A DNA stretch of 64,000 bases. Origin: a virus (lineage: Duplodnaviria; Caudoviricetes). Shown here one piece after another: positions 795 through 62,142 of the stretch. Made by a program: the position numbers and the translations under genes. The first letter of the stretch is position 1; each line of letters opens with the position of its first letter. The stretch lies in IMG/VR virus record IMGVR_UViG_3300032167_000006; one strand, written 5' to 3'. The notes under the pieces are model-generated. The model saw only the letters and a list, made by a program, of their open reading frames with translations, did no database searches and was not told the origin of the DNA.

Positions 795-2314
795 CATTCT
801 TTATATACTGTAGTACACATTACATTTTTAGTATTGTATTTCTTTTCTATAGATACAGACCTATTTTCTAATTCTTCATCACTCATAAATATATCTTTAC
901 ATGATTTAGAATATACTGAAAATATTGGTTTCTTTGCCTCGTAGTATTTTTTGGTAAAGAAGAATCCATTATCTACAACGTCTATATATAAAGTATTATC
1001 TTCCCTACATCTTCCAAGTGTCTGTCTAGCTAAAACTTCTGATTTAAATGGCTCTGCTAAATTAATAACACACCTAAGATCTTTTATATCACTTGCAGCT
1101 CCGCATGACTTAGTAGTACTAAGAATTATCTTATTATACAAATTGACTTCTTTGGCTCCTTTTTCAACAGCACTTGTATATATTCCTACACTGCCATTTA
1201 AAAATGGAAATTGAGAAATGATATAGTCGTAAACCGTCGTAATACCTGCATTTGTACCTATATAAATAAGTATCTTACCATTTATATTAAATACCATATC
1301 TATAAGTATAGTAACAAGCTTAAGAAAGTTAGGTCTATTTACAATATATGATACATATCTATTACGATCAAATCCATATTGATTTTTACATCTATTAATA
1401 TCCATAGCTGTTGGATGGGAATTAAAATGCATCGCACAATAGTTAACATGTGGATCTGTTTCTTCATTAAATAAAGAAATAGCTGGTATATTTTTAAAAT
1501 ACATTTTATATATTTCATTTTCTTCTTTAGAAGATCTTGCAGGGGTTGCTGTTAAATATAAAGTCTTTTTAGTATTAGAATGAAAATCTATTTTACACAT
1601 ATTATCGAAATATAAATGAGCCTCATCAAATACTTTTAATGAGCATTTTAAATATTTAAATAATTCATCAACAGTATTCCATCCATATTTATCACCATAT
1701 GATCTTATAGTAGCATGAGACGCTAATATGATTTGATATTGCATTGGATCTCTATTAAGTATTTTATGAATGCTTGAAGAACCTGTTAGCATATAGATTT
1801 GTTTTTCATCTAACTGAGTATATTCTAATATTCTATCTTTCCATTGATTTAACCAATCAATAGAGTTAGTTATTATAATAGCTCGTGATCCAGTATAACA
1901 TACTGTGGCTACAGTTAGAAATGTTTTACCAGAACCTGTAGTTGAGTTAACACATAATTGCGATTTTGATTTTGTATAAAAATACTTGTCTTCGCCTAAA
2001 ATAAATTTAAGAATTTCTAATTGCCTATCATCTTTAGGTAAATATTTTATAGGCATAGGCTCAGTATTTTCAAAAGGATCACATGATTTATCTACTACAG
2101 GCTCGCACATAAATGTATTTTTAAGATAATTTATATCAAATCCTCTTGGGATGATAAGTTTCTTATTTTCTTCATCATATTCAATCGCTTTAAAGAATGA
2201 TTGATGATATGTAGGATTCCATACAGAAAATAAATATTCTAAACGTGGAGCATCTCCCATTTCATAATTATTTATTTCTATTCTAGAATGCTTTAAAATA
2301 ATTTTATCCATCAT
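794..2314 (-). CDS. Superfamily 2 helicase (UvsW/XPB-like)
   Basis: Walker A STTGSGKT, DEAH, motif III TAT, motif VI QTLGRCR. Confidence 0.85.
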   Translation of the reverse strand: MMDKIILKHSRIEINNYEMGDAPRLEYLFSVWNPTYHQSFFKAIEYDEENKKLIIPRGFDINYLKNTFMCEPVVDKSCDPFENTEPMPIKYLPKDDRQLEILKFILGEDKYFYTKSKSQLCVNSTTGSGKTFLTVATVCYTGSRAIIITNSIDWLNQWKDRILEYTQLDEKQIYMLTGSSSIHKILNRDPMQYQIILASHATIRSYGDKYGWNTVDELFKYLKCSLKVFDEAHLYFDNMCKIDFHSNTKKTLYLTATPARSSKEENEIYKMYFKNIPAISLFNEETDPHVNYCAMHFNSHPTAMDINRCKNQYGFDRNRYVSYIVNRPNFLKLVTILIDMVFNINGKILIYIGTNAGITTVYDYIISQFPFLNGSVGIYTSAVEKGAKEVNLYNKIILSTTKSCGAASDIKDLRCVINLAEPFKSEVLARQTLGRCREDNTLYIDVVDNGFFFTKKYYEAKKPIFSVYSKSCKDIFMSDEELENRSVSIEKKYNTKNVMCTTVYKE

Positions 2315-2625
2315 TCAATATCCTTTCTTGAACTAGGTTTTAAAGTAGCATTGGTCATAGTAGCTCCACAATGCGGACAAAAAGGCAAATGACTCATATC
2401 TATAATAACGCCATTACCATCATATGATAAACACATTCTACAATTACTACAACCACATCTATCATTTACAAATATCCATTCTGCAAATATTTCTTCTTTT
2501 ACTTTAGCAGGTTCCATATTATTTATTGCTTCTTTAGTTACAAACATGTCTGGCATAACCGCTAATGGCAAATACTGCCAGGAAATTTTATCAACTTCAA
2601 TATATTTTTTATTCATTAATATCAC
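2311..2625 (-). CDS. Hypothetical Zn-ribbon protein
   Basis: CSNC and CPHCGA pairs; 4-nt overlap with helicase start. Confidence 0.65.
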   Translation of the reverse strand: MILMNKKYIEVDKISWQYLPLAVMPDMFVTKEAINNMEPAKVKEEIFAEWIFVNDRCGCSNCRMCLSYDGNGVIIDMSHLPFCPHCGATMTNATLKPSSRKDIE

Positions 2626-2733
2626 CTCTTAAAAAATAATAAATCAACCGCAATATAACATTATTGTAATATATATGACTGTGGTTGGTTATATGTATTG
2701 CATATTTCTCCTAATACACATTATTATGACAGC

Positions 2734-2761
2734 ATCCCGTAGGGTTAACGCCCTACGGGAT
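2734..2761 (-). terminator. Intrinsic terminator hairpin
   Basis: ATCCCGTAGGG / CCCTACGGGAT inverted repeat. Confidence 0.7.
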
Positions 2762-2772
2762 AACTGTTCTTT

Positions 2773-3159
2773 TTATCTGAGTATTGTAGTTTCTAAACCA
2801 TTAATAAAAGTTACTCTAATAGTATTTTGTTTGAAGTGATTTTTAAGTTCTTCAGCATGTATAAAAACATTTCGTTTCCATTCATGAATATCTATACCTT
2901 TATCATACTCGGTATAATCAGCTTCTAAAACAAATACTTCTTCTCCGCCATTAGGACATCCCCATATTTGTTTGTAAACGGTTTTAGCAGGTTTAACAAG
3001 CCAAGATATAGAACCATCATTATAATTTTCTTCAAATTCTTGAAGAAATCTACAAAAATTATCAAAAGACATTCCGGAAACTAATTCTCCAGAATGATAA
3101 CCTTCAATTGTTGAAATTGTTACTATAGCTTTTGTATGATTTAATTTATATTCTTCCAT
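2773..3159 (-). CDS. Hypothetical protein
   Basis: 128-aa ORF coupled to the upstream RNAP gene. Confidence 0.7.
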   Translation of the reverse strand: MEEYKLNHTKAIVTISTIEGYHSGELVSGMSFDNFCRFLQEFEENYNDGSISWLVKPAKTVYKQIWGCPNGGEEVFVLEADYTEYDKGIDIHEWKRNVFIHAEELKNHFKQNTIRVTFINGLETTILR

Positions 3160-3161
3160 TT

Positions 3162-5357
3162 TTATTTTCCTTCTTTTTCTACAATCTTAACCATTTCTAT
3201 ACCTTTATCAGGATCATTAATTTTAACATCATCGCTAAATAATCCATCTGACATATAGACCTGAGGTTGCTCACAGAAGAATAAATCAAAGAATGATGGT
3301 GCATGCTTAGAATATGACAGCGGATCATAGAGAACTTTACCAAGATTCTTATACAATAATGATACAACAATACTAGGATTATTAACAAGAGCATGGTCAA
3401 GTGTTAATAATTTATATTGTGTATATGGATTATTCCAATTAGGTTTAGCTAATACATTATCGGGTGATACTATCTGATTTGCCAATATTACTTCAAGATG
3501 AACAGCATCTACATCAAGTCCACCATCTATTACCAAATCAATAAGAGTCTGTAAGGCTTCATCTTTAGTCATCTTTTCAGTGACATCAGATTTATTAATA
3601 CAGTTAATAATATCATTCATAGTCTTACTAATCTCATCATTTGATATTTTGATATAGAATAATATATCTTCGGTAAGAGCACTTAAAGGAATAGCTACCT
3701 TACCATCTACAGCAGAAGCTTTATTACGAATTTGCTTATTAAGCTCATTTGAAATATATAAAGAATCATTATCTTGAGTTCCACATTCTATCATTTCACC
3801 AGTAGGTGTTTGTATATAGAATCTGGTAACGTATTCATTATAAACTCCAGAATTTTCATCTATATCAAAAGCTATTTCATTACCATCATCATCATATGAT
3901 ATAGTATCTTCTTCCTCATTAACAAGAAATACATCTTCTGGATCTATAATCATAAAATATTTCTTAAGATCTATGTCATCTAAATCTGTAAGTTTAATAG
4001 CATTAGATTCTACATCAAAGAAATCTTGAAATTGCGGTAACCATTTCATGGCAACAATATGAGTTTCAAGAAGATGTTTTGCTGATAATAGAATCTGTGT
4101 TAATATTGATGATAATATTTCTGCAGCAATCTTACCTACGTTAATATTAATATTGGTGTAGAAAAGATCTCCATAACAGCATTTACAAATACCTGTACCT
4201 GAAGTTCTAGATGCACAAGTCATTGGACTTTTAAGATATATAGTTTGACCTATAAGATGCTTATCTTTTTTATAATCAACAAGATACTGCATACCATTAG
4301 GTTTAAAACGATAATATCTATTTTTAATCATATTAAGATGCTTCTCAGTTTTTACTTCATACTTCATAAAATGCTGAGACATGCATTCATAATTAAAATC
4401 TGGATTCAATATAGTGTCAATATTATTCAGTCCAAGAAGTCTTGCAAAGTCACCAGAATCACCAACGTTATTCTTAGATAGAATCTGAGCTTTTCTAGCT
4501 GTAGATGATTCTATAAAATAATCTGTTGGCGTATTAACGCCACCTGTAGTAAAGCTTCTGTCAATCTTATGATCAAATACCAATCCATCATTAGCTGGTT
4601 TTGTGCCAATATTAAGTCTTGCTTCTTTAAACTGTCTTGGGTTTATAGCTTCAGATGCTTTAAAACTATTAGCAAGCCCATGGTCATAACCCAAATATTG
4701 TCTGCTATTTTTGATTATTTCAATAGCTTTATTTGTTGCTTCCATACCAGCATCCTTAACTTGGTCAAATGGCACATCGGCTAAAGATACATGAAGCAGA
4801 TCTCTATATGCAGGAACTGCCTTCATGAGTGCTATATCATCTTCATTATTAATTGTATTTGCTAAATAATAAGAAAAATGTTCTATATTACTATAGTTCC
4901 ATAATCCATCGCAAATATTATTATTCAGAAATACATTACCATATTTAATCTTATTTTCTTTTGTTAACACATATTCATCGACAAAGTTCTTAATATTTTT
5001 TCTTTTGAGCTCTGGTGACCAGAATATATGCTTAGGTCTTATTTGATTATTGTTTTTAAGCACCATACTCCACATGAATAAACTAAACCAATAATCCACA
5101 ATAAATAATTTGCAAGATATGTTATTCTCCCATGCAATTTCAATCATTAGATTATGTATATAATCCTCATCAATACCATCTTTTAAGATGGCTCCTATAC
5201 CATCAATATGGTCTGCAATGTTCTCTGCTGTTATATCCTTAGGAACATAGATTGAAATACATGTTTCACGATTTTTTATCATATCTGCATAGATATAATA
5301 ATTTTTAAAATTCACCAGATAAGTTTCTGGAATTTGTGTGGTTGTTGTTTGTGACAT
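3162..5357 (-). CDS. rpoC: Phage multisubunit RNA polymerase beta' subunit, C-terminal part (probably non-virion RNAP)
   Basis: Bridge-helix-like ARKAQILSKNNVGDSGDFARLL, Zn site KSPMTC...ICKCCYG, trigger-loop-like NVGKIAAEILSSILTQILLSAKH, VHLEVIL; NADFDGD-containing part is not in this ORF. Confidence 0.9.
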   Translation of the reverse strand: MSQTTTTQIPETYLVNFKNYYIYADMIKNRETCISIYVPKDITAENIADHIDGIGAILKDGIDEDYIHNLMIEIAWENNISCKLFIVDYWFSLFMWSMVLKNNNQIRPKHIFWSPELKRKNIKNFVDEYVLTKENKIKYGNVFLNNNICDGLWNYSNIEHFSYYLANTINNEDDIALMKAVPAYRDLLHVSLADVPFDQVKDAGMEATNKAIEIIKNSRQYLGYDHGLANSFKASEAINPRQFKEARLNIGTKPANDGLVFDHKIDRSFTTGGVNTPTDYFIESSTARKAQILSKNNVGDSGDFARLLGLNNIDTILNPDFNYECMSQHFMKYEVKTEKHLNMIKNRYYRFKPNGMQYLVDYKKDKHLIGQTIYLKSPMTCASRTSGTGICKCCYGDLFYTNININVGKIAAEILSSILTQILLSAKHLLETHIVAMKWLPQFQDFFDVESNAIKLTDLDDIDLKKYFMIIDPEDVFLVNEEEDTISYDDDGNEIAFDIDENSGVYNEYVTRFYIQTPTGEMIECGTQDNDSLYISNELNKQIRNKASAVDGKVAIPLSALTEDILFYIKISNDEISKTMNDIINCINKSDVTEKMTKDEALQTLIDLVIDGGLDVDAVHLEVILANQIVSPDNVLAKPNWNNPYTQYKLLTLDHALVNNPSIVVSLLYKNLGKVLYDPLSYSKHAPSFFDLFFCEQPQVYMSDGLFSDDVKINDPDKGIEMVKIVEKEGK

Positions 5358-6176: not shown

Positions 6177-8309
6177 ATGTCGCAAGATTTTATGAAGGCT
6201 ATGAGCCTTAAAGCTATTCAAGAATACGAACAAGTAATGGTAGATGGATTAAAACGTTCTTTTCCATTATTAAACGAATGTGAATTAAGAGAAGCAATTC
6301 AATATTCTATTACAAATCGTCTTGAAAACAAACCAGCTTATTTGGAAAATAATTACACAAAAAATAAAATCAATGGCACAGTTTTAGATATAATAAACTA
6401 TATCCAAAAACTAGAACCTATAATGACATCAAGCGGTGTTTTATTTAAGAAGCACAAAGAAGCAGATAATCCACTTGCAAAAATGATTATGGGTTTTATC
6501 GAACAACGTGGAATTTATAAGAAGGAAATGTTTAAGCATCCTAAAGGAACTGAAATGTTTGAACGATATAATCTCTTTCAGTTACTTGAAAAACTTAATG
6601 CGAATGCAACCTATGGTGTATTGGGTGCCCCTACGTCGTTGTATTACAATATCTATGTAGCTGAAGCAATTACCAGGCAAGGACGTTCATATATCAGTTG
6701 TTCTATTATGTTATTTGAATCACTATTAGCTAACAATATTAAATTTAATAACCTTAATGAAATAATAACTTTCATTAATAATGTGGAACATGAAAAACCT
6801 AATAGAAAACTTATTGATAGTTATATTTTAGATAGAAATATAACTCTTGAAGAATGTTTCTTTAAAGTAATGAATACTGTTGATATGATGATATGGGTTC
6901 CATCTGAAGATGAAATGGCAAGAGTATGGGAATACTTAAGAGGATTATCTCAAGAAGATATAAATCGTATTTATTATAAAAATAATTTATATACTTTTGT
7001 AGATTTACCAATAGTAACTGATCTTATTATTAAAATACTTTGTGAAATTGATGACCCATTTATGGATCCCAATAAACCACCAAAGAATATTAAAGAAGAT
7101 CTTGATACTTTAGTATCAATGGTTAAAGAATATGTATATTACCCACATTTCTATATTGATAAATTAGATAGATTGGAATATATGCAGAGAGATATAGTTG
7201 CTATAAGTGATACTGACTCAACCATTATATCATTTGATGCATGGTATAGATTTATTCTTGATAAAGTTTATAATATAGATATGCCTGTAAAGCATCAGAA
7301 ACGTGATATGGTAGAAGTAATCAAAGCAGATGAATGGGGAGATAAGCCATTAAGAGAAATGGTCACTTATGTAGAACCAAGATATGATTATAATTTCTAT
7401 ACTGATGAGGTTATTGAATTAGATCGACTTGTTGAACCATGCGTATTAGTCCCTCAAGATAATCTTAGATATGCTATTATAAATATTATTGCTTATATAT
7501 GTAGTGATCTTGTTGTGGATTATCTTGCAGAATATACAAAACTCTCTGGTAGTTATGTCGAAGGTACTAAATGTCGCATGATTATGAAAAATGAATTCTT
7601 ATTCCAACGTGTTATGCTTACTGAGAGTCGTCGAAATTATGCAGATATACAGAATCTTCAAGAGGGTAATATTATTCCTAAAGGTATTAAAAGCCAGTTA
7701 GCAATAATGGGTTTACCTATGAATAAAACTACATTATCAGACGACGTTAGAAAAAGATTACAGCAAATTTTATATGAAGATGTGTTAACTGCAGATAAGG
7801 TTGATCAAGTTAATGTAATGAAAAAGCTTATAATATTTGAAAAAGAAATTTATAATAGTATTATGAATAAAGAAACCAAGTATTATAAACCTGATAATAT
7901 AGCAGCTATAAATAGTTATAATAAAGATCCATTGTCTGTAAATGGTATTCTTGCAGCTACTATTTATAATGAGATGCGCAATGAAGATATGCCTGCTATT
8001 AATCTTGAAGAACGTAATAAGATTACTAAAATTAAGATTGACGTTAATAAAAAGAATGTAGATAAAATCAAAGATACTTATCCAGAAGAACATGCTAAAT
8101 TAGTTAGACTTCTAAATCATCCAATACTTGGAGCTAAAGTTACAGTTATAGGATTACCACCTGATGTCGCTGTTCCAGATTGGGTGTTGAGTTTCGTTGA
8201 CTTTACTACAATTATTAACGATCAGCTTAAGAACTTCCCTCTTGATAGTATTGGGCTTAAGAGATTGAATAATGATTCGGTTAACGTATCTAATATAATT
8301 CAATTATAA
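6177..8309 (+). CDS. Split family-B DNA polymerase, catalytic subunit (motifs B and C)
   Basis: KLNANATYG (motif B), ISDTDS (motif C); motif A and exonuclease motifs are in 24992..26905. Confidence 0.9.
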   Translation: MSQDFMKAMSLKAIQEYEQVMVDGLKRSFPLLNECELREAIQYSITNRLENKPAYLENNYTKNKINGTVLDIINYIQKLEPIMTSSGVLFKKHKEADNPLAKMIMGFIEQRGIYKKEMFKHPKGTEMFERYNLFQLLEKLNANATYGVLGAPTSLYYNIYVAEAITRQGRSYISCSIMLFESLLANNIKFNNLNEIITFINNVEHEKPNRKLIDSYILDRNITLEECFFKVMNTVDMMIWVPSEDEMARVWEYLRGLSQEDINRIYYKNNLYTFVDLPIVTDLIIKILCEIDDPFMDPNKPPKNIKEDLDTLVSMVKEYVYYPHFYIDKLDRLEYMQRDIVAISDTDSTIISFDAWYRFILDKVYNIDMPVKHQKRDMVEVIKADEWGDKPLREMVTYVEPRYDYNFYTDEVIELDRLVEPCVLVPQDNLRYAIINIIAYICSDLVVDYLAEYTKLSGSYVEGTKCRMIMKNEFLFQRVMLTESRRNYADIQNLQEGNIIPKGIKSQLAIMGLPMNKTTLSDDVRKRLQQILYEDVLTADKVDQVNVMKKLIIFEKEIYNSIMNKETKYYKPDNIAAINSYNKDPLSVNGILAATIYNEMRNEDMPAINLEERNKITKIKIDVNKKNVDKIKDTYPEEHAKLVRLLNHPILGAKVTVIGLPPDVAVPDWVLSFVDFTTIINDQLKNFPLDSIGLKRLNNDSVNVSNIIQL

Positions 8310-24390: not shown

Positions 24391-25011
24391 TTATTGTACT
24401 TTTATAAAATTTATATAAGTTATTATATTAAATTTCTTTTTACTAATACGAAATCTTGAAATAAATGTATGAATCAAGTCAGGTTGAAATATTTGTAAGT
24501 ATAATTTATCACTTTTTGTAGTTGGTAATATTGATGAGAATAAAGTCATATAATAACCTTCATAAATTACACTAGCAGCACCATCTGCTTTGCTCATACT
24601 TTGAATTTTACTTAAAATTTCAGGTATTTCAACTTCATTAATGGCTATTTGAGTTGTATTATCAATTGATATGGCATATTTATATTTATTATAAGCAAAA
24701 GATATTATTCTTTGATCAAGACCAATTAATAATTCTCCCCCACCAACTGTTCTAAGAGTTGTATCTATAGAATCAAATTCAAAATCTGATTCTATAGATA
24801 TAGTTTTAATAAATGCAGATAATGAACGCTGATTAATTATAATACCATTAAAATAATTATTTATGAAATTGCTATCTAACAAGACATAAGTTACTATATA
24901 TTGAATATTATCAAGTCCAATTATAGCATTATCAATAAGAACAAAATCTTTTTGTTTTAAAGCTTTAGCAGCTTCATTAATATATACTAATTCACTGGTT
25001 GTTATATTCAA
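24391..25011 (-). CDS. Hypothetical protein, candidate divergent DNA sliding clamp
   Basis: 206 aa; overlaps the polymerase exonuclease-subunit stop; strand/helix pattern resembles T4 gp45/PCNA by eye only. Confidence 0.4.
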   Translation of the reverse strand: MNITTSELVYINEAAKALKQKDFVLIDNAIIGLDNIQYIVTYVLLDSNFINNYFNGIIINQRSLSAFIKTISIESDFEFDSIDTTLRTVGGGELLIGLDQRIISFAYNKYKYAISIDNTTQIAINEVEIPEILSKIQSMSKADGAASVIYEGYYMTLFSSILPTTKSDKLYLQIFQPDLIHTFISRFRISKKKFNIITYINFIKVQ

Positions 25012-26905
25012 ATTTACTCATCCTTTCTTGCTTATAGCACATTTCTCTACCAACAGAATTATCCACAATTATACACATTTCTCTCTTATTTTTATTAGGA
25101 ACTATAGTACACATAATTCTACCACCATTAATAGTATCACTTGAATATAATCCTCTCATTGGAGCTTTAATGGTTGAAAAATATTTTATTATATCATAAT
25201 ACATATCCAAATAGCCTGCAAGATTAAGATATCTTTGACAAAAATTAAGTCTATCATGAGATATGAAATCTTCCATAAACCATACTGTTCTATCATAATA
25301 TGGATTATTAAATCTATTCTCCTTAGGATCAAGAACTTCAGGGAAGAATACTTTACCATGCTGTGTCATCGGGCTCATATTAGATTCATCAATTATAGAC
25401 GGATACAGACTCTTATAGTCAAAGTCATCCAGATTATCACATAACATTGTCGGACGACCATCTATTTTAACTCTAGGTTTCTCACTTACTAAAGTCGGAT
25501 CGGCTACAAATGCACCTGCAAATCCAACTTTTTCATTGCTCTTATTAGTATTGCATCCAAGAATATAACCCATATTTCTAAAATCTTTAACACCACGATT
25601 AACAAGATAAGTTGTCTGTCTATGAACTTTAGAATATCTTGTATTTGTAGTCATAGCTTTAGAATATACAAAGTCTATATCATTAACTTTATTTTCTATA
25701 CATAACTGAACAATTGTATCCATAATATTATAGAAAACAAAAGTTCTATAATCTAGATAAGGAAGTTTAGATATATTAGTTGTAATATTAGAATAATCAA
25801 GTTTCTTAACACCTGCTATTAATCCACCAACATAATCAAGTTTAAATGATGCTATTGCTCTTTGACCTTTACGACGAGATGCAAATGTAACTAATTGATC
25901 TATATATACAGAATATGAAGATACTTGAGCATAATCTCCACGTTCTTCAAACTTATCAGCCCTCTTATCAACGTAATAATAACATTCTTTAACCTTGAAA
26001 TCTTTATGACAAATAATTTCACATGGATCATATCCAAGATTAATAATTCTTTGAATAAGATACGGTAAGTCGAATGGCATGTTCCATGCTATTGAAAAAT
26101 CTGGTTTAATTATATTGATTACATTAAATGCATCAGTTAATAATTTTATTTCTTCATCATAAAACATGATTTTATATTCAAATGGATCAAGACCTAAACG
26201 ATGTTCTTGTTTCCAACCACCAACTGTATCTTGAACAAATTGCTTTATTTTTATAGGTATATCTTTTTCCGTTTTAAATAAATCAATTAATGGATTATTG
26301 TAATTATCTAAAAGTAAAGTATATACCTTTTTATTAATATCATCAACTAATGTTATGGCGTTTACAGGACATTCTCCAGGTTCAGGAAAATCTCCTCTCA
26401 TATCAATAGTATCAGCCTCGATATCGAAGTACAATTTAGTGGGTTTAAACTGTTCATTTTTATATAATAAATCAAATCTATATCTATAAAAATCTTCAAT
26501 ATGCATATCAGCACCAAATATAGAAGGTATCTGAAATAACTTATCATTATCTCTAGCATTTCCTGTACGAAGATTATCATAAAAGAACTCAAGATTACCA
26601 GTTCTCTCAGCTATATCTTTTTTCAAATCATTATATTTACAAGTAACTTGATAAACATCTTTTTCTTCAATACATAATTTATTATAATCTACAGGTACAC
26701 CTTCATTTGTCATCCAATAAGTATATTCTGGTTCGGAAATATGTTGGACTTTCTTTTCCATAGTATCCATATCTTTATAAATTATATCTATACTATCTTT
26801 TCCATATTTTCCAGTCTCAATATCTTTTTTAGGTTTATGATATATTATATTTAATAGAGATATATTAGCACCTATGGGATAACCTTTAATAAATGATTTA
26901 TCCAT
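24992..26905 (-). CDS. Split family-B DNA polymerase, 3'-5' exonuclease plus motif A subunit
   Basis: ExoI FDIEAD, ExoII WNMPFDLPYL, ExoIII YNIMD, GAFV, motif A DFDYKSLYPSII..NMSP. Confidence 0.9.
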   Translation of the reverse strand: MDKSFIKGYPIGANISLLNIIYHKPKKDIETGKYGKDSIDIIYKDMDTMEKKVQHISEPEYTYWMTNEGVPVDYNKLCIEEKDVYQVTCKYNDLKKDIAERTGNLEFFYDNLRTGNARDNDKLFQIPSIFGADMHIEDFYRYRFDLLYKNEQFKPTKLYFDIEADTIDMRGDFPEPGECPVNAITLVDDINKKVYTLLLDNYNNPLIDLFKTEKDIPIKIKQFVQDTVGGWKQEHRLGLDPFEYKIMFYDEEIKLLTDAFNVINIIKPDFSIAWNMPFDLPYLIQRIINLGYDPCEIICHKDFKVKECYYYVDKRADKFEERGDYAQVSSYSVYIDQLVTFASRRKGQRAIASFKLDYVGGLIAGVKKLDYSNITTNISKLPYLDYRTFVFYNIMDTIVQLCIENKVNDIDFVYSKAMTTNTRYSKVHRQTTYLVNRGVKDFRNMGYILGCNTNKSNEKVGFAGAFVADPTLVSEKPRVKIDGRPTMLCDNLDDFDYKSLYPSIIDESNMSPMTQHGKVFFPEVLDPKENRFNNPYYDRTVWFMEDFISHDRLNFCQRYLNLAGYLDMYYDIIKYFSTIKAPMRGLYSSDTINGGRIMCTIVPNKNKREMCIIVDNSVGREMCYKQERMSKFEYNNQ

Positions 26906-31055: not shown

Positions 31056-31154
31056 AAGATTTCCTCCCATCCAAATTATCTTTTTATTTAAATGTATACG
31101 GCTTTATATTATCTTACATTTTATTATAAAAAATAATAAGAGTGAGGTAAACCC

Positions 31155-38283: not shown

Positions 38284-40563
38284 CTATTGTAAAACTATAT
38301 TATTTGCTTCTAAGAATCCAGATTTATTAAATACCGGAATTCCATACTTTTTAGCTTTCTGCACTTTTGATGAAATAGAATTGATATCATCTGCTATAAG
38401 TGCAAATGTATCTTTAGTTACAGAATATTTATCACTTGCATCAAATCCATTATTAATTAAAAGCTGGATGAATGCAGAATCTCTAAATCCTGTAATTGCT
38501 ATCCTTGGACCAGTAGATAATCCTTTAGAATTAATAATATGGAAATTATCTATACAATATTGTACATCTTTATCATATAATAAAAATCCTTCCACAATAG
38601 CATCCACTGTCTTTGGACCAATGCCATTTATATTAATTAATTTTTCATGATCAGTAAAGATTTGATGCATTAATTCTTGTAATGTGTAATTTCTAAAAAT
38701 TAATTTCCAAGTCTCATCTGCCATTCCATCAAAGCTGAAAGCTGACATAAGCTTATAATCCATTATTTCAGAATTTTTAAGTTGCTCTATATAAGATAGT
38801 AGATTTGAACTATTTATAGGTCCTAAAAATTGTACTTGCTCATAAGTTAAATTCATTAATTTACTAAATGAAGTTAATTTAAGAGCTCTAACTGTTTCTT
38901 CTGAGAAATCTTTAAAACCAAATCTATCAATCATATCAACCATTCTCATTATAGAACGTTCATAACATTTTACATTTGGGCATTTAGCAGATTTTCCAGA
39001 ATCAGATATAATTAATTCAGTACCACAACATGGACAATGAGTGATAAATTCAACAGGTTTTTCTTTTTGATCTCTATTATGCTGTGTGTCAGGTTTCGTA
39101 ATATAGGTGATTACGTCATTTACATAATCAATATCTATCTCGTCACCAACAGCAAGATTCAATTCTTTAAATCTTTTATATGAATGAATAGTCTGTTTGG
39201 TGTGAATACCTCCTATGAATTCACAGGCTTTAAAATGACACATCGGTATAATATCACCAGATTTACCAATAGAATATGAATATCCTAAGAATAAAGTTCT
39301 GGCGTTGCGAGGATTAAATTTAATTGCCATTGAATATTTATTAACTGAATTAATTCTACCAAGCCTATTAATTTTATCTTTATCGATAAATGATACTACA
39401 ACTCCATCTATCATATAAGGTAAAATCTTTCTAATAGTCTCTGCAGATTCTACAAACTGTTTGACCTGAAATAATATAGATTGATAGTCTCCTTTAAGAA
39501 TACAAAATCTATTATATTCTCCAGAATGATAATATTTATTTAAGAAATTAAGTTCGGGAATTCTATCCATCTCCAGAGATGTAGCTATTGGTATTAATGT
39601 AATATAATCTATGTAATTGTAAGCATCACTTGCACCACATAAACCAATTATTGCATTTCTTCCATTCTTATAACTCTTACCTCTGGCTTCTGATAAACGC
39701 TGAAGGTTATAATAAGTTATAACAGCCTCAAATTTCATGCCAAATGTAATATCTGTTGGTACATCTTTAGCATTATGAAATTTATATCCGCCAAATATTG
39801 GAGTTAAATCGGTTGCAATATTATCTCCAGTATCTCCACGAGATAGTGCGCTTATAATTGTATCTCCACATACTTCAGCCTCAACTGAAATACCATCATA
39901 TTTTAATTCAGCTACCATTTCAAATTCTTCATTTGGATATATTATTCCTTGATCCAAACACTTATGAATAAAATCCCTTTCAAATATCTGAACTGATGGT
40001 TTATCATATACGTTAGCTATAACAGCATCATTGTTTAAAACAAATTTACATTTATCTAACGTACCAACCAATTCTGGATATTTATGTTCTGTATTAATAA
40101 GTCTTTTAGTAATAGGTTCTCTAACTAAAAAGCACATATTAACAGGTCTCATCTCACGCAATGGAGTATGCTGTTTCCAAATATCTCTAGTAAATAATTT
40201 ATCATCCATATTATCTACAGCTACACACATTACTTTTTCAGTTTCAACTTCATTTTGAGGCTGCTCCTTGAATATTATAGGAGCAGCACCAACTTGATAG
40301 TTAGGATCATAGTTATAATACTTTACAGCCAGCTGATCATATATACCATCATCTAATGGAAGTAAAGTATTGCTTGTATTATTGTATGCAATATTACTAA
40401 TTCTTAATATTAAATTAGCCATATTAATCATACCTTCATTCCAATCTTGGCAATTAATTAAATTAACTGCCATGTTGCTAAGTTCTGCACAAGTTTTAGT
40501 ATCATTCAGTAGTTCTGGATTTCCTTTTTCCAACTCCGACAACATCTTTTCTAACTTGACCAT
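38284..40563 (-). CDS. ligA: NAD-dependent DNA ligase
   Basis: ELKYDGIS adenylation motif, RGD, IDGVV, AIKF, C4 Zn finger, HhH (GIGPKT), BRCT (ITG); likely start 40563. Confidence 0.92.
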   Translation of the reverse strand: MVKLEKMLSELEKGNPELLNDTKTCAELSNMAVNLINCQDWNEGMINMANLILRISNIAYNNTSNTLLPLDDGIYDQLAVKYYNYDPNYQVGAAPIIFKEQPQNEVETEKVMCVAVDNMDDKLFTRDIWKQHTPLREMRPVNMCFLVREPITKRLINTEHKYPELVGTLDKCKFVLNNDAVIANVYDKPSVQIFERDFIHKCLDQGIIYPNEEFEMVAELKYDGISVEAEVCGDTIISALSRGDTGDNIATDLTPIFGGYKFHNAKDVPTDITFGMKFEAVITYYNLQRLSEARGKSYKNGRNAIIGLCGASDAYNYIDYITLIPIATSLEMDRIPELNFLNKYYHSGEYNRFCILKGDYQSILFQVKQFVESAETIRKILPYMIDGVVVSFIDKDKINRLGRINSVNKYSMAIKFNPRNARTLFLGYSYSIGKSGDIIPMCHFKACEFIGGIHTKQTIHSYKRFKELNLAVGDEIDIDYVNDVITYITKPDTQHNRDQKEKPVEFITHCPCCGTELIISDSGKSAKCPNVKCYERSIMRMVDMIDRFGFKDFSEETVRALKLTSFSKLMNLTYEQVQFLGPINSSNLLSYIEQLKNSEIMDYKLMSAFSFDGMADETWKLIFRNYTLQELMHQIFTDHEKLININGIGPKTVDAIVEGFLLYDKDVQYCIDNFHIINSKGLSTGPRIAITGFRDSAFIQLLINNGFDASDKYSVTKDTFALIADDINSISSKVQKAKKYGIPVFNKSGFLEANNIVLQ

Positions 40564-42760
40564 ATTCCTCACCAACTTTCTTACACATTACTTTACCAGC
40601 CATCATTTTTCCATTACCACGTTTATAATCATCGAGAGCCGCATTGTATTGCATTTGTAATTCATCAAACCTACCTAAAACATCACGTATATTAGTCTTA
40701 GGTTTATGAAGTCTAGGTGGTACAATTTTAGCCATGACATTAAGAACCATATCTTTTCTTTGTTTTGGTATCCTTTTAAATGTCAATCTAAGACCCATAG
40801 TTTCCATCAATGCATTAATTATTTCAGCATTTCTATTTTTAGAATTCTGATCTAATTTAATATCAATATTATATGGATCACCAACTAAAAGTTGCTCAAC
40901 AAGTCTTCTACCTTGAGGTGATGACGAATAAAGCATAAGATTCATTACAACATATTGAACTCCCATATGAAGCAAGTCACCAGATTCCATAAAACCAAAC
41001 ATGATAGGTGTTTTGGTATACTTAGCTTCATACATCTTGTTTGCTTTAGAACGTGTATTAAGATTCTTTAAGTTTGTTGCAGAAAGTGAAGTAACTGAGA
41101 ATTTTTCTTCTGCGTACTGTTTTAATCTATAATGATAGATTTTACTTACAACCATAGGTCTTAATGCTTTAACCATTCTAATATTACCATTAGAATCTTC
41201 CATAGGCATCATAATTTTATATGGTTTTATAAACTCAAATTCATCATATATTTTTTCTATAGTATCTATATTAATAGATGTAGTAAATGGTTGAGTTGTT
41301 AAAATAATAGCATCATCTTCTAAAATACTATTAATTATATTTCTACATTCAAATTCATCTTCTGGATCTATATAATAAAGCATTTCATCAGCCTGCTCTT
41401 TATCAACCATCGAGATAAATTTATATAACATTTTAACTTGTTCACCATATGTCATATGTCCTATCCTAAAATAGTCTAAAAGACGCATTCCGATAAATGA
41501 TAAAGATTGCTCATGAAGCTGTCCGATATTTTCACGGTTGATACAAGTAGACTGATTTTTAATAACCTCTACTCTTTTACCATTTTCAAGCATAGGCATT
41601 AACTCATCATCAAGTATCTGAGATACAACACCTTTACCACCGTATCTATCACACATTTTATCGCCAGGTTCCATAGGAAGTTTCTGAATAACTGTAACTT
41701 CCATAATAACATGGTTAAATACTTTTTCTTTATAGAATTGCTTACCAGAAATAATATCTCTACATCTACCATAAAATTTCTTTAAGTTATATGATAAATT
41801 AGAAGTCATAGCTAATGGTCCAACAATGTCATTAACTTCTTTACAAAATCTAAGACTTTGATTATAATAATAAAATAACTGTGCATTATAATGTGAATCT
41901 CCAAGAGCTTCAGGATTATTACAATATATATTTATATCTGCTACAGTGCCTTCCATAAGGATATTTCTATCCGAAAGCATTATATCTCTAAGATTTTGCT
42001 GACTTAAAGAATACAGTATATTTTCATTTTCCATACGACGTATAGAACAAAATATACCATTTTTAACTTCTTCTCCGATATCAGGAAATGTTTTATATAC
42101 ATTTTCATCTCCATAAAGATTAAGAAGAATATCGTTATCATTTATTGTTATAGGCGTATTTTTAACCAAAGGTATTGCTAATTTTTCAGCACATGATTTT
42201 GATAATATTATAGAGTCTTCCATATTTTGAGCACATGATACATACAACGTGGTTAAATTAATACCATTCATTTTATTACCATACTCATCAAAACCAATAG
42301 ATGTTTTAATAGGTGCACCTTTATTTATCTTATCGCCTACTCTTAAATCATCTAATTTATTATTATTCCATAAGAATCCATATGATTCAGTATTGTAATT
42401 ATATGCAACTCTTTCAATAACATCATACACACCATTTATATTATCATATATTAATAAATAATAATGATGATCTTTACCTTCAATTGTTTGAAACTTATGC
42501 ACAACGGTATAGTCTGATGGAGATGCTATATATGAAGTTGAATTTCTGCCGAATTCATTTTCATATCCAGTTTGAATAATAGGCACTTCTCCATTATAAA
42601 GCACTGTAAGATGCTCAGTATGTACTGAAGTCATTAGTGCTCTAGAACCAGAGTTGGCAGGTCTAAATGGTTGCATTGAAGTTCGTCCAAGCATATAATT
42701 ATAATTAGGTAAATAATTAGTACTTTCTATGATTTGTTCATTAATATTAATATTTGCCAT
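40502..42760 (-). CDS. rpoB: Phage multisubunit RNA polymerase beta subunit, C-terminal part
   Basis: SRALM, NMEDSIILS, GDKMCDRYGGKGVVS, RENIGQLHE, FGFME. Confidence 0.92.
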   Translation of the reverse strand: MANININEQIIESTNYLPNYNYMLGRTSMQPFRPANSGSRALMTSVHTEHLTVLYNGEVPIIQTGYENEFGRNSTSYIASPSDYTVVHKFQTIEGKDHHYYLLIYDNINGVYDVIERVAYNYNTESYGFLWNNNKLDDLRVGDKINKGAPIKTSIGFDEYGNKMNGINLTTLYVSCAQNMEDSIILSKSCAEKLAIPLVKNTPITINDNDILLNLYGDENVYKTFPDIGEEVKNGIFCSIRRMENENILYSLSQQNLRDIMLSDRNILMEGTVADINIYCNNPEALGDSHYNAQLFYYYNQSLRFCKEVNDIVGPLAMTSNLSYNLKKFYGRCRDIISGKQFYKEKVFNHVIMEVTVIQKLPMEPGDKMCDRYGGKGVVSQILDDELMPMLENGKRVEVIKNQSTCINRENIGQLHEQSLSFIGMRLLDYFRIGHMTYGEQVKMLYKFISMVDKEQADEMLYYIDPEDEFECRNIINSILEDDAIILTTQPFTTSINIDTIEKIYDEFEFIKPYKIMMPMEDSNGNIRMVKALRPMVVSKIYHYRLKQYAEEKFSVTSLSATNLKNLNTRSKANKMYEAKYTKTPIMFGFMESGDLLHMGVQYVVMNLMLYSSSPQGRRLVEQLLVGDPYNIDIKLDQNSKNRNAEIINALMETMGLRLTFKRIPKQRKDMVLNVMAKIVPPRLHKPKTNIRDVLGRFDELQMQYNAALDDYKRGNGKMMAGKVMCKKVGEEYGQVRKDVVGVGKRKSRTTE

Positions 42761-42835: not shown

Positions 42836-43048
42836 CTATTTTTTAACAATTTCACACATTACCTTTTTACGATCATTACATTTACGATTGATGTACTCTT
42901 CTACACTCTTTTTAGGAATTTTCCATACAGTTCCAACTTTAAATGCATCAATTTCCTGATCATTTAATAACTGATATGCCGTGTTCTTTCCTATTCCAAG
43001 AATCTCACAGAGCCCATCAATTTCCATAACTAAACGCTCTTTGGGCAT
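42836..43048 (-). CDS. Excisionase/MerR-type helix-turn-helix protein
   Basis: LCEILGIGKNTAYQLL...AFKVGTVWKIPK; C-terminal KVMCEIV. Confidence 0.8.
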   Translation of the reverse strand: MPKERLVMEIDGLCEILGIGKNTAYQLLNDQEIDAFKVGTVWKIPKKSVEEYINRKCNDRKKVMCEIVKK

Positions 43049-44821: not shown

Positions 44822-45772
44822 TTACGGAACTATGATATTTTCATATACTCTAAGTCTATCAATCATATCATTTATTTTTTGATAATCATCAGATAATCTT
44901 CTCATACTAAATCTAACCGGCTTTCCATAATGGACTAGCTTATACGATTCTGTATAATTCAATAATACATGTCTAATATTATCACTAGTAAACTCATTAA
45001 GTATATCTAATACAGCAAGAGATAATGTTGAATCTACCTCTTGTATATCATCAGTTATCCAATGAGTTGACTCATCCGCATCATCATAATCATCTAAAAC
45101 ATCCATCATTATATGAGGGAATATTTTAACATAATTTCTCTGATCTCTATCAAGCTCATATAAAATCTTTAAGATTTGTACTATGGTTTCTTGAGTCATG
45201 ATTGATTTATGCTGACCAATTATAATAAAATTAACTCTCTTAACACATACCTTAGGATTAAGATTAGACCATCTTGCTATAAGAAGTAAGTTAGCTACAT
45301 TATTATTTAATCCAAGTCCAAGTAATCTTGGAAGATATGGTGCATTAATAATATTAGCAAGCATATACATTCTGCTTACAACAGCAGGATTTTTATTCAC
45401 ATGGCTAAATGTGATATAATCATAACAAATATTATTTATCTTGGCAATATTATCTCTATCAAAATAGTTACCTTGATGAATATAACGTTGTACTACATCA
45501 ATAAATGCATCTAAGAATCTTACATTTGTAAAACAGTTAATATAATCTGCTGATTCTTTAGAACCAAAGAATATATTATTTAATATAGTCCTAAATGAGT
45601 TTTGAACAAACATACGAAGTTCAGTATCATTCATATTATTCATATCATATATTGATCCTAAGAGGATTGATTTATTGAACGATGGTGAATTTGCAGGTAC
45701 TATTTTTACCATCTCCACTAAATGTTTTTCATCATAGTTTTTCTTATCTTCCCAGTATTTTTCAAATGCCAT
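44822..45772 (-). CDS. Hypothetical helical protein downstream of tubulin
   Basis: 316 aa, GGGAGG SD, N-terminal VEMVKIVP motif. Confidence 0.8.
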   Translation of the reverse strand: MAFEKYWEDKKNYDEKHLVEMVKIVPANSPSFNKSILLGSIYDMNNMNDTELRMFVQNSFRTILNNIFFGSKESADYINCFTNVRFLDAFIDVVQRYIHQGNYFDRDNIAKINNICYDYITFSHVNKNPAVVSRMYMLANIINAPYLPRLLGLGLNNNVANLLLIARWSNLNPKVCVKRVNFIIIGQHKSIMTQETIVQILKILYELDRDQRNYVKIFPHIMMDVLDDYDDADESTHWITDDIQEVDSTLSLAVLDILNEFTSDNIRHVLLNYTESYKLVHYGKPVRFSMRRLSDDYQKINDMIDRLRVYENIIVP

Positions 45773-47670: not shown

Positions 47671-48571
47671 CCTTTCTAACTATTATACACATTTCTTTCT
47701 TAGGCATGCTATAATACGGAATATAATTATACATATATGGATTATACATTCTTGCAGCAATAGGCTGATAACCAACTACACTATCATAATAGTATGAAGC
47801 AGCATTTAAATCCAAATATACATTAATTCCAGTTTGTTTGGTAAATAGAGTTTCTTTAATATTTATTTCGCCATTTCTATATTTAGTTGTAATAATTAAG
47901 TCTTTAGGATATGTATTTAAATTTATAGGCAAATTAATATATTTACAAATATCACTTTGTTTAAATGGTTTAAGTTTAACATACCCTGGAGCATATATTC
48001 TTTGAGATGGGTGGATATGTTTTTGTATATCATATAAATCTACTATATAATGCTTATAGTAGATTTCATCTTTAGCTTCAGTATATCCTTCAATATGTCT
48101 AAGATCAGCAAGAAAGTATTCAAAACATTTCCATCTATCACATACTGTTGTACCAAGGGCACCAATATATGGGAAAGCTTGAGATTCTGGATGATAGCAC
48201 TTATCTATTATATTTCTCCAGATCTTATGTTCTGATACAAAATGGTATGGATCTGCAAATCCTAAATATGAAGGATCGTAGTTTAAATCTGGTATATATT
48301 TAGCTAAAGCCCCAGATATTAATCTATCTATTGGAACTATAGAATTAGTTGCTAATAAATTTTCTTCTTTATCAAAGATATCTACCTTTACTAAAGTAAT
48401 TTTATATTCTCCATATCCATCCTCATAGTTTCTTTGATTATCTGCAATTTCTTTTACTAAGGTAAAATACTTTGATTTATATGCTCTAAAGTAATCTCCT
48501 ACATGCAGAATTGTGCTTTCATCAAATTTTAATACTTGTTGTTTCATTTTTGTGTATCTCTCCTTAGACAT
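47654..48571 (-). CDS. HNH homing-endonuclease-like protein, probably degenerate
   Basis: WRNIIDKCY...YIGALGTTVCDRWKCFEYFLADL matches the phage HNH-type W..M..RC...YGGRGI.VC.RW..F..F..DM block; the DRID/N..Y.P.N segment is diverged. Confidence 0.55.
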   Translation of the reverse strand: MSKERYTKMKQQVLKFDESTILHVGDYFRAYKSKYFTLVKEIADNQRNYEDGYGEYKITLVKVDIFDKEENLLATNSIVPIDRLISGALAKYIPDLNYDPSYLGFADPYHFVSEHKIWRNIIDKCYHPESQAFPYIGALGTTVCDRWKCFEYFLADLRHIEGYTEAKDEIYYKHYIVDLYDIQKHIHPSQRIYAPGYVKLKPFKQSDICKYINLPINLNTYPKDLIITTKYRNGEINIKETLFTKQTGINVYLDLNAASYYYDSVVGYQPIAARMYNPYMYNYIPYYSMPKKEMCIIVRKDETNV

Positions 48572-52331: not shown

Positions 52332-53016
52332 TAATATTTCCTTCCTTTTCCACTTTCTTAACCATAACTAAATGAGCTAAATATACTGGATCATCTCCAG
52401 GTAGAAAATCTACTTCTTCTTCATGCATGTCTTCATAATAATCAACCTCATTAACAACATAGTCTTCAAATTGATCTTTTGTCATACTGGTATTTGGATA
52501 ATCTGCTTTGACTTCTTCATATGAATTATAATTATCTAAATATATAAGATTATAATCAAGACACTCATCTTTAACTAAAATACCAGAACAAATTTTATAA
52601 TGTTCTTGAAAAGCCATTCCAGGTTCTTGCGACCACAATTCTATTTCTAATTGTAATCTTTTAGATTCTTTTAAAAGAGTGCTACCATAATGCTCGCCTG
52701 GATGATCATGTTCAAACTGCATGAAGTATGACCAAGGACCACCCATCATACATGAACTAACAGACCATGCACATTCAAAATCAATAGATACACATTTATA
52801 TATTCCACTATTCCAATGCTCATCAAATTTATATGCTGAGAATACCCTAAAGAAATGTGGTATATGCGTAAAGTTTTTAGGATCTACACACCAACTATAA
52901 TCATAATTATTTTTATCTTTATAATATGAATAGTTAGCATCTAATATTTTTAATAATTCATCAACGCAATCGGCACGACCTCTAACGTTCATGAAACCAG
53001 TACATATATTTGGCAT
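52321..53016 (-). CDS. Hypothetical protein (YubB/ferredoxin-like fold possible)
   Basis: MPNIC...G and FECAWS, EPG motifs; C-terminal LVMVKKV. Confidence 0.6.
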   Translation of the reverse strand: MPNICTGFMNVRGRADCVDELLKILDANYSYYKDKNNYDYSWCVDPKNFTHIPHFFRVFSAYKFDEHWNSGIYKCVSIDFECAWSVSSCMMGGPWSYFMQFEHDHPGEHYGSTLLKESKRLQLEIELWSQEPGMAFQEHYKICSGILVKDECLDYNLIYLDNYNSYEEVKADYPNTSMTKDQFEDYVVNEVDYYEDMHEEEVDFLPGDDPVYLAHLVMVKKVEKEGNINEV

Positions 53017-56814: not shown

Positions 56815-56819
56815 ATTTT

Positions 56820-59274: not shown

Positions 59275-59345
59275 GTATAACTAGAGCAGAGGAAATTACT
59301 CCTCTGCTCTTCATTATTTTTTATTAGGTTTATGTGTTATTGATC

Positions 59346-60281: not shown

Positions 60282-60448
60282 TTTTGTTACCTCCGTTTAA
60301 AATTTTATAATATAATAAAATGGATACCAATTGAGTATAGAGCACCACCTCTATACTCAACTATGATATACAATTACTTTTTTGTTTAAGCTAGTATAAA
60401 TTTATACTTAAACTTTATGTAATTGTTAAATCATTAATAATAAAATTA

Positions 60449-61150
60449 TTATTCTTCTGTATTAGATGTTTCATCTACTTCTGTTTCTGGTACAATTGTT
60501 TCTTCTACAACTGTATCTTCTACATTAGATGTTTCATCTATAAGTACTTCTTCTACATTAGATGTTTCATCTTTTATTTCATTAATATTAGATTCTTCAT
60601 CTTCTGTTTTATTTTTTGCATTAACTTTTTCTACATAAGCATTATATTCTGCTTTAGCTCTAGTTTCTGCAAAATTTTGTGTGAAACGACCATTGTAATA
60701 ATCGTCATTATCATTAACTGCCTTTTGACCATCAATAACGCCATGAGCTTTATTAATATCAGTAGGTCCAAGATTAACAATATTTGGATTAAGAGCAGAT
60801 TTAAATCTGTCAATGATGCGCTCTTTCCATTCATCGCTAACACAACCAAGTGAATCTAACGATTCTTTAAGCTGTGGTATAGTCATTCTAGCTACTTCCA
60901 TAGACTGAATATGCTCGTAAGCAACTGCGAATAATGATACAGTACCTCCAATATTTGAAGGTGATCTTTCTTTAATGGGTTCTGTTAAAGCGTAATTATA
61001 AAGAATTCCGTTTTCATCATCCCATTTAACAAACTGATATTTTGTAGACTCATCAATAAGTCTAAATGTATTATCTATATATACTATAAGTGGCCAGTTT
61101 TTACCTGCTTTAAGTATATTTCTTACTTTTATAACATCAGCTTTTTCCAT
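60449..61150 (-). CDS. Hypothetical protein with acidic DETSN(V/T)EE-repeat tail
   Basis: Three DETSNxE repeats, also visible as DNA repeats. Confidence 0.8.
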   Translation of the reverse strand: MEKADVIKVRNILKAGKNWPLIVYIDNTFRLIDESTKYQFVKWDDENGILYNYALTEPIKERSPSNIGGTVSLFAVAYEHIQSMEVARMTIPQLKESLDSLGCVSDEWKERIIDRFKSALNPNIVNLGPTDINKAHGVIDGQKAVNDNDDYYNGRFTQNFAETRAKAEYNAYVEKVNAKNKTEDEESNINEIKDETSNVEEVLIDETSNVEDTVVEETIVPETEVDETSNTEE

Positions 61151-61233
61151 TTAAATATGCCTCCTTATAATAAAATATTAATCCTGGGGGCTTACGCACC
61201 CAGGCTAAATATTTTTTAGTTTTACCAAAATGT

Positions 61234-61701
61234 TTAGAGATTAGAAATATCCCTAGTATCTATCATTCTGATAGGCATAAGTGTTGTTATAATATCTGCA
61301 CCATATGAAATAGCTTCAAACATTTTTAAAATTGCGTACCAATGTTTTGCTCTCATATTCTGCACAACTTGTTCATTAGAAGCACGTATTCTTTCTTCAA
61401 GTATATTACTTGACGGAAAAGGTTTAATGCCTCTATTTAAACATTCATTAATATAGAAATTTAATGAATTACAAATAACTACACTTGAATTATAGTTATC
61501 CTGTGCCTCAGCTATACATGCTTGTATAATCTGAGGGCTATGAAAATAATTATAATCTTGCTCCTGAATCATATCAAAACGAATATCTTTAACAATTCGT
61601 TTTACATTCTTACGAATCTCATCAAGAGGGATACGATTAAAGAAATTCGGATCATTATTTTGACCACGTTTCTCTGCAAAATAACTTTGTCTTCCTGCCA
61701 T
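61234..61701 (-). CDS. Hypothetical protein
   Basis: 155 aa, AGGAGG SD. Confidence 0.75.
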   Translation of the reverse strand: MAGRQSYFAEKRGQNNDPNFFNRIPLDEIRKNVKRIVKDIRFDMIQEQDYNYFHSPQIIQACIAEAQDNYNSSVVICNSLNFYINECLNRGIKPFPSSNILEERIRASNEQVVQNMRAKHWYAILKMFEAISYGADIITTLMPIRMIDTRDISNL

Positions 61702-61716
61702 TTCTCTTCACCTCCT

Positions 61717-62142
61717 TTATTCAAGATCTTGCGTATTAATATCTCCGTCCATAAAGGATTTCATATCAATACGTTCTTTGTTGTCGATTATAAGATTCAT
61801 ATCATTCATTCTCTTATAATCATCTTCATCCCAATCGCCTTTGATATAATCTTCTATATCAAATCCATCGGAATAGAATTCTCCGGCGTATTTCATAAAT
61901 GCGTAAATAGATTTACGCTCGGCAAGAGTTACGGATTCTACTAATACGAAACTATGCTCTAAATCAATATCGTCAATAACGTTTTTAATGTATTCATAAG
62001 CTTCAGTTCGACCTGTAACAAGATCCCATGAATCTTGAACTCCAGAATCTATTTTAGCTCTAATACAAATTAAGTATTGGCGGTCTTCAGGATGTTTCTT
62101 AGTATTATCCACAATCTTGACCATTTCTTTTAATTCTGCCAT
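61717..62142 (-). CDS. Hypothetical protein
   Basis: 141 aa, N-terminal KEMVKIV, GGAGG SD. Confidence 0.8.
   Translation of the reverse strand: MAELKEMVKIVDNTKKHPEDRQYLICIRAKIDSGVQDSWDLVTGRTEAYEYIKNVIDDIDLEHSFVLVESVTLAERKSIYAFMKYAGEFYSDGFDIEDYIKGDWDEDDYKRMNDMNLIIDNKERIDMKSFMDGDINTQDLE

Follow-up and report, generated by a model that had tools for sequence, protein, structure and literature searches.

Why should the replicative polymerase, the RNA polymerase, the DNA ligase, helicases and a series of small proteins of one phage carry the same handful of residues? The question is raised by a 64,000-nucleotide stretch of a tailed virus (Duplodnaviria; Caudoviricetes), IMG/VR record IMGVR_UViG_3300032167_000006, referred to here in its full length as the window; it corresponds to the reverse strand of bases 144,618–208,617 in one virus contig, 258,973 bp long and 29.6% G+C. 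A short peptide, here called the tag, recurs in its proteins with the consensus [KR]-[EV]-M-[CV]-x-[IK]-V-[DE/P]-[KN]. It is retained in related phages, where it changes in step from lineage to lineage. The chances seem to us about even that it is a clamp-interaction motif new to science, whose receptor would be a PCNA/gp45-like sliding clamp encoded by the phage itself.

The tag and the proteins that carry it

We compared the 255-gene proteome with 300 within-protein shuffles. The pattern M[CV]xIV was found 18 times (shuffle mean 0.61, maximum 4), MCxIV 12 times (mean 0.11) and the strict pattern [KRI][EVD]M[CV]x[IKV]V also 12 times (mean 0.05). Searched across the whole genome, the strict pattern gave 13 matches; in a six-frame translation of the window it gave 9, every one in long minus-strand open reading frames (ORFs). 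A position matrix, from which the above consensus is taken, found 29 sites at 12 bits or more, as opposed to 1.0 in shuffles, distributed over ~25 proteins. The sites cluster strongly at the termini: of 18, 12 are no more than 15 residues from an end of their protein, a region holding 9.6% of residues (binomial p = 6.6e-9). N-terminal copies start 2–5 residues past the Met of a gene with its own ribosome-binding site. Literature searches did not find a description of the motif, and it matches no consensus known to us.

A preliminary description of the window had listed about 20 copies on about 14 proteins. The tag stands, and all the listed copies are in coding frame, at or a few bases from where they had been placed; the matrix count is the larger one. 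The excess over shuffled sequences bears that description out, and its contrast with structural proteins holds, in that no site of at least 12 bits was found in the portal, terminase, sheath or two virion-RNA-polymerase-like genes. By the same threshold the tag was not found in the beta'-N subunit of the non-virion RNA polymerase (nvRNAP), a Dda-like helicase, an SbcC-like ATPase or the candidate clamp itself.

The phage belongs, at some distance, to the AR9-like jumbo phages, since its PolB exonuclease subunit (PolB-exo) is ~32% identical to the counterparts from Bacillus phages AR9/PBS1 and the Staphylococcus jumbo phages, and its RNA polymerase pieces align with chains of the solved AR9 nvRNAP. 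Four of the five nvRNAP subunits are tagged: beta-N, beta-C, beta'-C and the orthologue of the fifth AR9 subunit. The latter is chain A, missing from structure 7S00 and present in 7S01, 7UM0 and 7UM1, which we take to be the promoter-specificity subunit gp226. Tagged DNA enzymes are both halves of the split PolB, a divergent DnaB-like helicase, an SF2 helicase, the NAD-dependent ligase and a Cas4/PD-(D/E)XK exonuclease; the polymerase and the DnaB-like helicase have their Pfam matches in the "divergent" PolB and DnaB families. Further carriers are an HNH protein, a methyltransferase-like protein, an HTH_17 protein and two Zn-ribbon proteins, and ~8 more have no assigned family, among them the neighbour of a tubulin gene.

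In nine of the ten carriers having an AR9 homologue the tag falls outside the AR9-alignable core (beta-N, beta-C, beta'-C, the gp226-like subunit, PolB-exo, the DnaB-like and SF2 helicases, the ligase and g70), and therefore on clade-specific extensions. The tag-bearing tail of PolB-exo, for example, extends past the part that can be aligned with AR9 PolB. Two further RNA polymerase genes lie outside the window and are untagged, namely a second beta-like gene (genome 44,467–48,864, plus strand; 1465 aa, apparently unsplit) and a second beta'-C-like gene (genome 127,574–128,797, plus strand; 407 aa). These presumably encode virion RNA polymerase subunits.

Selection acts on the tag peptide and not on the DNA, because synonymous codons match genome usage and neither out-of-frame nor non-coding copies occur. 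At 24 sites, Ile is encoded by ATA (8) or ATT (10), Glu by GAA (9) or GAG (4), and the last Val by GTA (8), GTT (9), GTG (5) or GTC (1). The use of different synonymous codons by the EMVKIV copies had already been read in this way, and the codon counts bear that out. A nucleotide signal translated by chance, such as a promoter, operator or RNA element near gene boundaries, could account for the 17–21 identical bases common to three copies and for the many copies within 90 nt of a gene start. The shared bases are, however, explained by strong codon bias, which yields similar DNA for identical peptides. Nucleotide searches with mismatches returned in-frame copies and chance matches only, and no copy is on the opposite strand; the alternation of C and V needs a two-base change, and orthologues keep the peptide class despite DNA divergence. 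A nucleotide signal is thus already contradicted by the data and we give it almost no credence. The promoter or RNA-element reading was rejected because copies are exclusively in frame with synonymous sites free. An alternative start or tiny ORF at the motif ATG was also rejected, since the Shine-Dalgarno sites serve the upstream ATG and since the motif Met is replaced by Val or Ala in one lineage.

Re-coding of the tag among related phages

No close relative was found among GenBank phages. Relatives in IMG/VR have 52–74% protein identity, and from these we took eight related loci and three whole genomes (G001, G002 and G003). The tag is found at the same protein ends in the orthologues, in forms that differ by lineage. 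G001 keeps M-[CV], retaining the motif Met at 19 of 20 sites as compared with 60% of other methionines (p = 8e-4). In G002 the motif Cys is retained at none of 11 sites, versus 48% of other cysteines (p = 0.001), having changed to Y, M or I followed by D/E; the resulting dialect is M-[YMIL]-[DE]-[LV]-[VL], as in KMYDVV, TMIELV and KMMDIL. In G003 it is the motif Met that is lost, being retained at 1 of 18 sites versus 40% elsewhere (p = 0.002) and otherwise changed to V, A or I, then K-R. The G003 dialect is [VL]-[AV]-[ICA]-K-R-V, as in VLAIKRV, IVIKRV and LVAKVV.

All related lineages have the triple tag of PolB-exo, written in the dialect of the lineage: RIMCTIV/REMCIIV/REMCYKQ in the window, RYMIDPIV/RPMIELV/REMIVIQ in G002 and KIICRNI/RIVISRV/RKAIIIQ in G003. 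The G003 lineage has a split PolB-exo gene, with the main ORF stopping at about residue 500 and a separate 153-aa ORF, immediately ahead of the clamp gene, carrying the three tags (L091:5559-6017, L092:5559-6017). The two tags inserted in the PolB catalytic subunit also co-vary, reading FDMVKVI/REMCEIV and FDIMELI/LKMMDIL in relatives. Such coherent change at more than 15 unlinked sites points to a single co-evolving receptor that reads all the tags. De novo enrichment of exact-residue k-mers in G002 and G003 did not recover the dialects, which are too degenerate to stand out, and lineage-specific matrices gave modest numbers of extra matches (13 versus 5.8 in G003, 8 versus 6.4 in G002).

MCxIV has no copy in AR9 or in Staphylococcus phage MarsHill. 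A tubulin/FtsZ-family gene (Pfam Tubulin, E 8e-9) and its conserved 316-aa neighbour, present in all three whole relatives, were also not found in AR9 or MarsHill. By this distribution, the tag-bearing clade of AR9-like phages has a PhuZ/TubZ-type cytoskeleton that AR9 does without.

A sliding-clamp fold beside the polymerase gene

The ORF that follows the PolB-exo gene had been named in the preliminary description as one candidate partner of the tag. It has, according to structure prediction, a sliding-clamp fold. An AlphaFold2 (AF2) model from seven orthologues has a predicted local distance difference test score (pLDDT) of 84.9 and a predicted template modelling score of 0.83, with pLDDT above 90 when more sequences are used. 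It contains two repeated beta-alpha-beta-beta-beta domains and matches solved clamps over the whole chain. The top 50 Foldseek matches are all PCNA, 9-1-1 or African swine fever virus clamps (prob 1.00). VIA-align to T4 gp45 (3u61_F, 6drt_A) and yeast PCNA gave Z 10.7–10.8 over 179–187 residues (179–191 of the 206 residues across the aligned clamps; for gp45, Z 10.4–10.7 and root-mean-square deviation 3.2–3.3 Å over ~180 residues). The ESM Atlas places the ORF beside gp45, PCNA and beta-clamp clusters, with structure rows at template modelling scores of 0.62–0.68. Pfam and PHROG gave no match, and a profile search of PDB sequences returned no clamp, so that the assignment is by fold alone. Three invariant lysines (K16, K19 and K69) are in or at the ends of predicted helices 5–18 and 61–69.

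The clamp ORF starts within the PolB-exo gene, overlapping its final 20 nt, and has its ribosome-binding site inside the third tag; the two genes are translationally coupled. They overlap in different frames in the window and in G001. In three related loci (L085, L086 and L087) they are in the same frame with a single TAA and six codons between them (L087:5980-6000). The clamp was not found in AR9 or MarsHill, either in the position after PolB-exo or by whole-genome profile, and an IMG/VR search for clamp relatives returned the same clade only (15 loci). Because the clamp family is confined to that clade, clamp and tubulin cannot be separated phyletically.

A clamp is the hub on which short terminal motifs of polymerases, ligases, nucleases, helicases and methyltransferases classically converge. 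In T4, the tails of the gp43 polymerase, gp33 and gp55 and a loop of the ligase bind the gp45 clamp, which activates late transcription through the gp33 and gp55 tails and so links it to replication. The system described here resembles T4 in having a phage-encoded clamp, by predicted fold, and short hydrophobic end peptides common to polymerase, ligase and transcription proteins. It differs in that neither clamp nor motif has sequence similarity to its T4 counterpart, in the ~25 tagged proteins, core RNA polymerase subunits included, and in the three tandem tags of PolB. The PCNA-interacting-protein (PIP) box and the beta-clamp motif QL[SD]LF are likewise each one short motif at termini or linkers of many unrelated DNA enzymes, docking on one ring hub of the fold predicted for the candidate hub here. 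The tag, too, lies in terminal or linker extensions outside the catalytic core and is common to a replicative polymerase and other DNA enzymes, but its consensus M-[CV]-x-I-V has no Q and no aromatic pair. We know of no whole-proteome re-coding between close lineages described for PIP or clamp-binding motifs.

On the clamp-motif reading, the tag would be a short linear docking motif that proteins of replication, repair and late transcription carry as an added terminal or linker extension. The clamp would serve as a DNA-bound toolbelt, with tags docking in a pocket on each clamp subunit. The three tags of PolB might then be one for each subunit of a presumed clamp trimer, and tags on four of the five nvRNAP subunits would couple late transcription to replicating DNA in the fashion of T4 gp33/gp55; the AR9 nvRNAP transcribes late genes. 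Several observations argue for this reading. The carrier list (polymerase, ligase N-region, nucleases, helicases, methyltransferase and transcription factors) resembles that of clamp clients elsewhere, and three evenly spaced PolB tags adjoin the gene of a presumed trimeric ring, to which the PolB-exo gene is coupled as noted above. AR9 and MarsHill lack clamp and tag alike. The Dda-like helicase, the SbcC-like ATPase and beta'-N are untagged, and the partner list therefore fits better than a universal import signal would.

A number of points weigh against the clamp as the reader. Binding of the tag to the clamp is something that we infer, and both structure predictions were uninformative. A complex prediction of three clamp copies with the 63-aa PolB-exo tail scored 0.00, which is uninformative either way. 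A tethered read-through AF2 model of L087 (TAA=G) had a clamp part with pLDDT above 90 and a tail with pLDDT 45–59, in which tag 1 and part of tag 3 were low-confidence strands with no confident docking. The tag is unlike the known clamp-binding consensus Qxx[LIM]xx[FY][FY], QL[SD]LF and the T4/RB69 tails. No gp44/62-like clamp loader was found in the genome by Pfam PF13177 or PF00004, again a difference from T4, though a divergent loader may have escaped these models; the P-loop proteins are helicases, the Dda-like one among them, the SbcC-like protein and the terminase. Tubulin, its neighbour and many unassigned genes have the same distribution as the clamp, which phyletic evidence therefore cannot pick out from among them. 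Among the carriers, the tubulin neighbour and several proteins of no assigned function are not obvious clamp clients, and four tags per RNA polymerase exceed what tethering needs. A genome-wide screen for charge complementarity to the acidic G002 and basic G003 tags gave no clear signal, with the clamp outside the top 15. Within the clamp just two columns are suggestive, S75 (E in G003) and E78 (K in G002); these changes complement the charge of the dialects, which is only a hint.

The candidate partner of the preliminary description thus gained a predicted clamp fold, while the two predictions said nothing of tag binding. The beta-strand addition suggested there would be one possible way for the tag to bind, and direct support for its nucleus-import variant did not emerge. 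Its wider proposal, a terminal docking code for one hub, is strengthened by the conservation of the tag at orthologous sites and its coherent re-coding by lineage; the clamp as that hub, its trimeric state and the binding mode are what we infer.

Table 1. Tag copies and other features, in window coordinates
Feature	Position	Strand	Protein and context
NVMCTTV	806..826	-	SF2 (ResIII/DEAD) helicase, 8 residues from C-terminus
IEMVKIV	3180..3200	-	nvRNAP beta'-C, C-terminus; orthologue of AR9 nvRNAP chain D
RDMVEVI + REMVTYV	7302..7373	+	PolB catalytic subunit, internal insert
Candidate tag receptor	24391..25011	-	ORF with predicted PCNA/gp45-type clamp fold; 206 aa, TTG start
RIMCTIV, REMCIIV, REMCYKQ	25028..25120	-	PolB exonuclease subunit, C-tail; methionines 12 residues apart
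308-aa gene	27248-28174		divergently transcribed
SMC/Rad50/SbcC-like ATPase	28359-31070	-	903 aa (SMC_N, AAA_29)
KEMCRIV	31419..31439	-	97-aa Zn-ribbon protein, residues 4-10
tRNA-Pro-like stretch	31694-31773		
IEMVNIV	34281..34301	-	105-aa Zn-ribbon (TFIIS-like) protein, residues 2-8
KEMCRIV	34800..34820	-	nvRNAP beta-N, C-terminal extension; alignment with AR9 nvRNAP chain c stops at 522, before tag
GAMVAIV	37233..37253	-	205-aa protein, family unassigned; weaker internal copy, M to V in G003 lineage
KVMCVAV + VNMCFLV	40123..40236	-	NAD-dependent DNA ligase, N-terminal extension ahead of AR9-alignable region
KDMVLNV, NVMAKIV, KVMCKKV	40574..40756	-	nvRNAP beta-C, tail; alignment with AR9 nvRNAP chain C stops at 659/752
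KVMCEIV	42845..42865	-	70-aa HTH_17 protein, C-terminus
Tubulin neighbour	44822-45772	-	316-aa protein
VEMVKIV	45698..45718	-	316-aa tubulin neighbour, near N-terminus (residue 21)
Tubulin/FtsZ-family gene	45811-46989	-	
KEMCIIV	47678..47698	-	HNH-endonuclease-like protein, C-terminus
LVMVKKV	52351..52371	-	231-aa protein, no assigned function, C-terminus
KEMVKIV	62110..62130	-	141-aa protein directly downstream of Dda-like helicase gene, residues 5-11

Some neighbouring features were also recorded (Table 1). The SMC/Rad50/SbcC-like ATPase gene adjoins the PolB-exo/clamp pair, and the divergently transcribed 308-aa gene is strongly conserved with no family match. The tRNA-Pro-like stretch, situated in a tRNA region, has 87–89% identity to tRNA-Pro genes of phiKZ-like Pseudomonas phages and of Stenotrophomonas phages. 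Outside the window, at genome 49,858–85,881, is a block of ~27 genes, several of them longer than 1000 aa, which have no orthologue in G001–G003 and are untagged.

Other readers of the tag and what it means

The tag may instead be an address code that targets or imports proteins to a replication-transcription compartment or scaffold of this tubulin-encoding clade, read by a receptor other than the clamp; we regard this as unlikely. It would explain why the carriers are nearly all nucleic-acid enzymes, why four separately encoded nvRNAP subunits are each tagged, as subunit-by-subunit targeting expects, and why virion RNA polymerase pieces and structural proteins are not. The tag-bearing clade has a PhuZ-like tubulin with a tagged neighbour, both of which AR9 and MarsHill lack, and lineage re-coding is compatible with any single receptor. 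A comparable known system is the chimallivirus nucleus (PicA/Imp), which is likewise found in jumbo phages with their own multisubunit RNA polymerases and a PhuZ-like tubulin and brings enzymes to phage DNA. There, however, import cargo is recognised by patches of folded surface residues and not by a terminal signal (PMC12908238), whereas the tag is linear and terminal. AR9-like phages lack chimallin according to a review (PMC13282480), and no candidate shell or importer emerged here, where no search aimed at chimallin or PicA/Imp was made. The clamp, Dda-like helicase, SbcC-like ATPase and nvRNAP beta'-N are untagged although they would be expected on phage DNA, and three evenly spaced tags on PolB-exo are superfluous for an address. 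The specific version, that a terminal address signal sends enzymes of replication and late transcription subunit-wise to a tubulin-positioned compartment in a clade with no chimallin, by way of a co-evolving importer or scaffold, we hold to be a minority possibility of about the same weight. The cargo-loading peptides of encapsulins and the encapsulation peptides of bacterial microcompartments are also short terminal peptides common to unrelated enzymes, but their cargo is metabolic enzymes and their receptors are shell proteins; the tag is unrelated to them in sequence and no shell gene is known here.

A host factor might read the tag, be it an Hsp70-type chaperone, a protease adaptor or the host beta clamp, with the dialects reflecting different hosts. 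Degrons and chaperone sites are typically placed at both N- and C-termini, the tag is hydrophobic at its core and flanked by basic or acidic residues, and the three dialects come from phages of different samples. But the pockets of host chaperones and clamps are highly conserved, so that wholesale re-coding (M to V/A, C to Y/M/I) is unexpected; the tag is unlike the beta-clamp or any known degron consensus, a degron on both polymerases would be counter-productive, and the restriction to nucleic-acid enzymes is left unexplained. We consider a host reader distinctly improbable. Still less probable, in our judgement, is a receptor-free arrangement in which beta-prone segments (MCIIV, MVKIV, VAIKRV) zip the carriers together into a replication/transcription factory. 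The strongly beta-prone composition of the tag, the two or three tags of some proteins and the joint change of all copies per genome, as mutual compatibility requires, are in its favour. Yet K-R in G003 and D/E in G002 inside the tag would repel each other in an in-register stack, and most carriers have a single tag and cannot build a network.

Networks of short linear motifs on one hub are textbook knowledge for PCNA and the beta clamp; in phages, to our knowledge, they are known only for a handful of T4 proteins. Here one phage has a proteome-wide tag on ~25 proteins, re-coded in step between sister lineages, which makes an unusually clean natural record of motif-receptor co-evolution. That four nvRNAP subunits are tagged suggests that replication and late transcription are directly and physically linked. 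The tag also predicts which unassigned proteins work on phage DNA, and its three dialects offer orthogonal tag-receptor pairs. If the clamp is the reader, the clamp-motif principle would extend here to an unusual breadth of partners with a documented change of dialect. If the reader is something else, the tag would be a phage targeting signal of a novel type, and were it to be an address signal, it would be the first linear signal to target proteins to a phage compartment.

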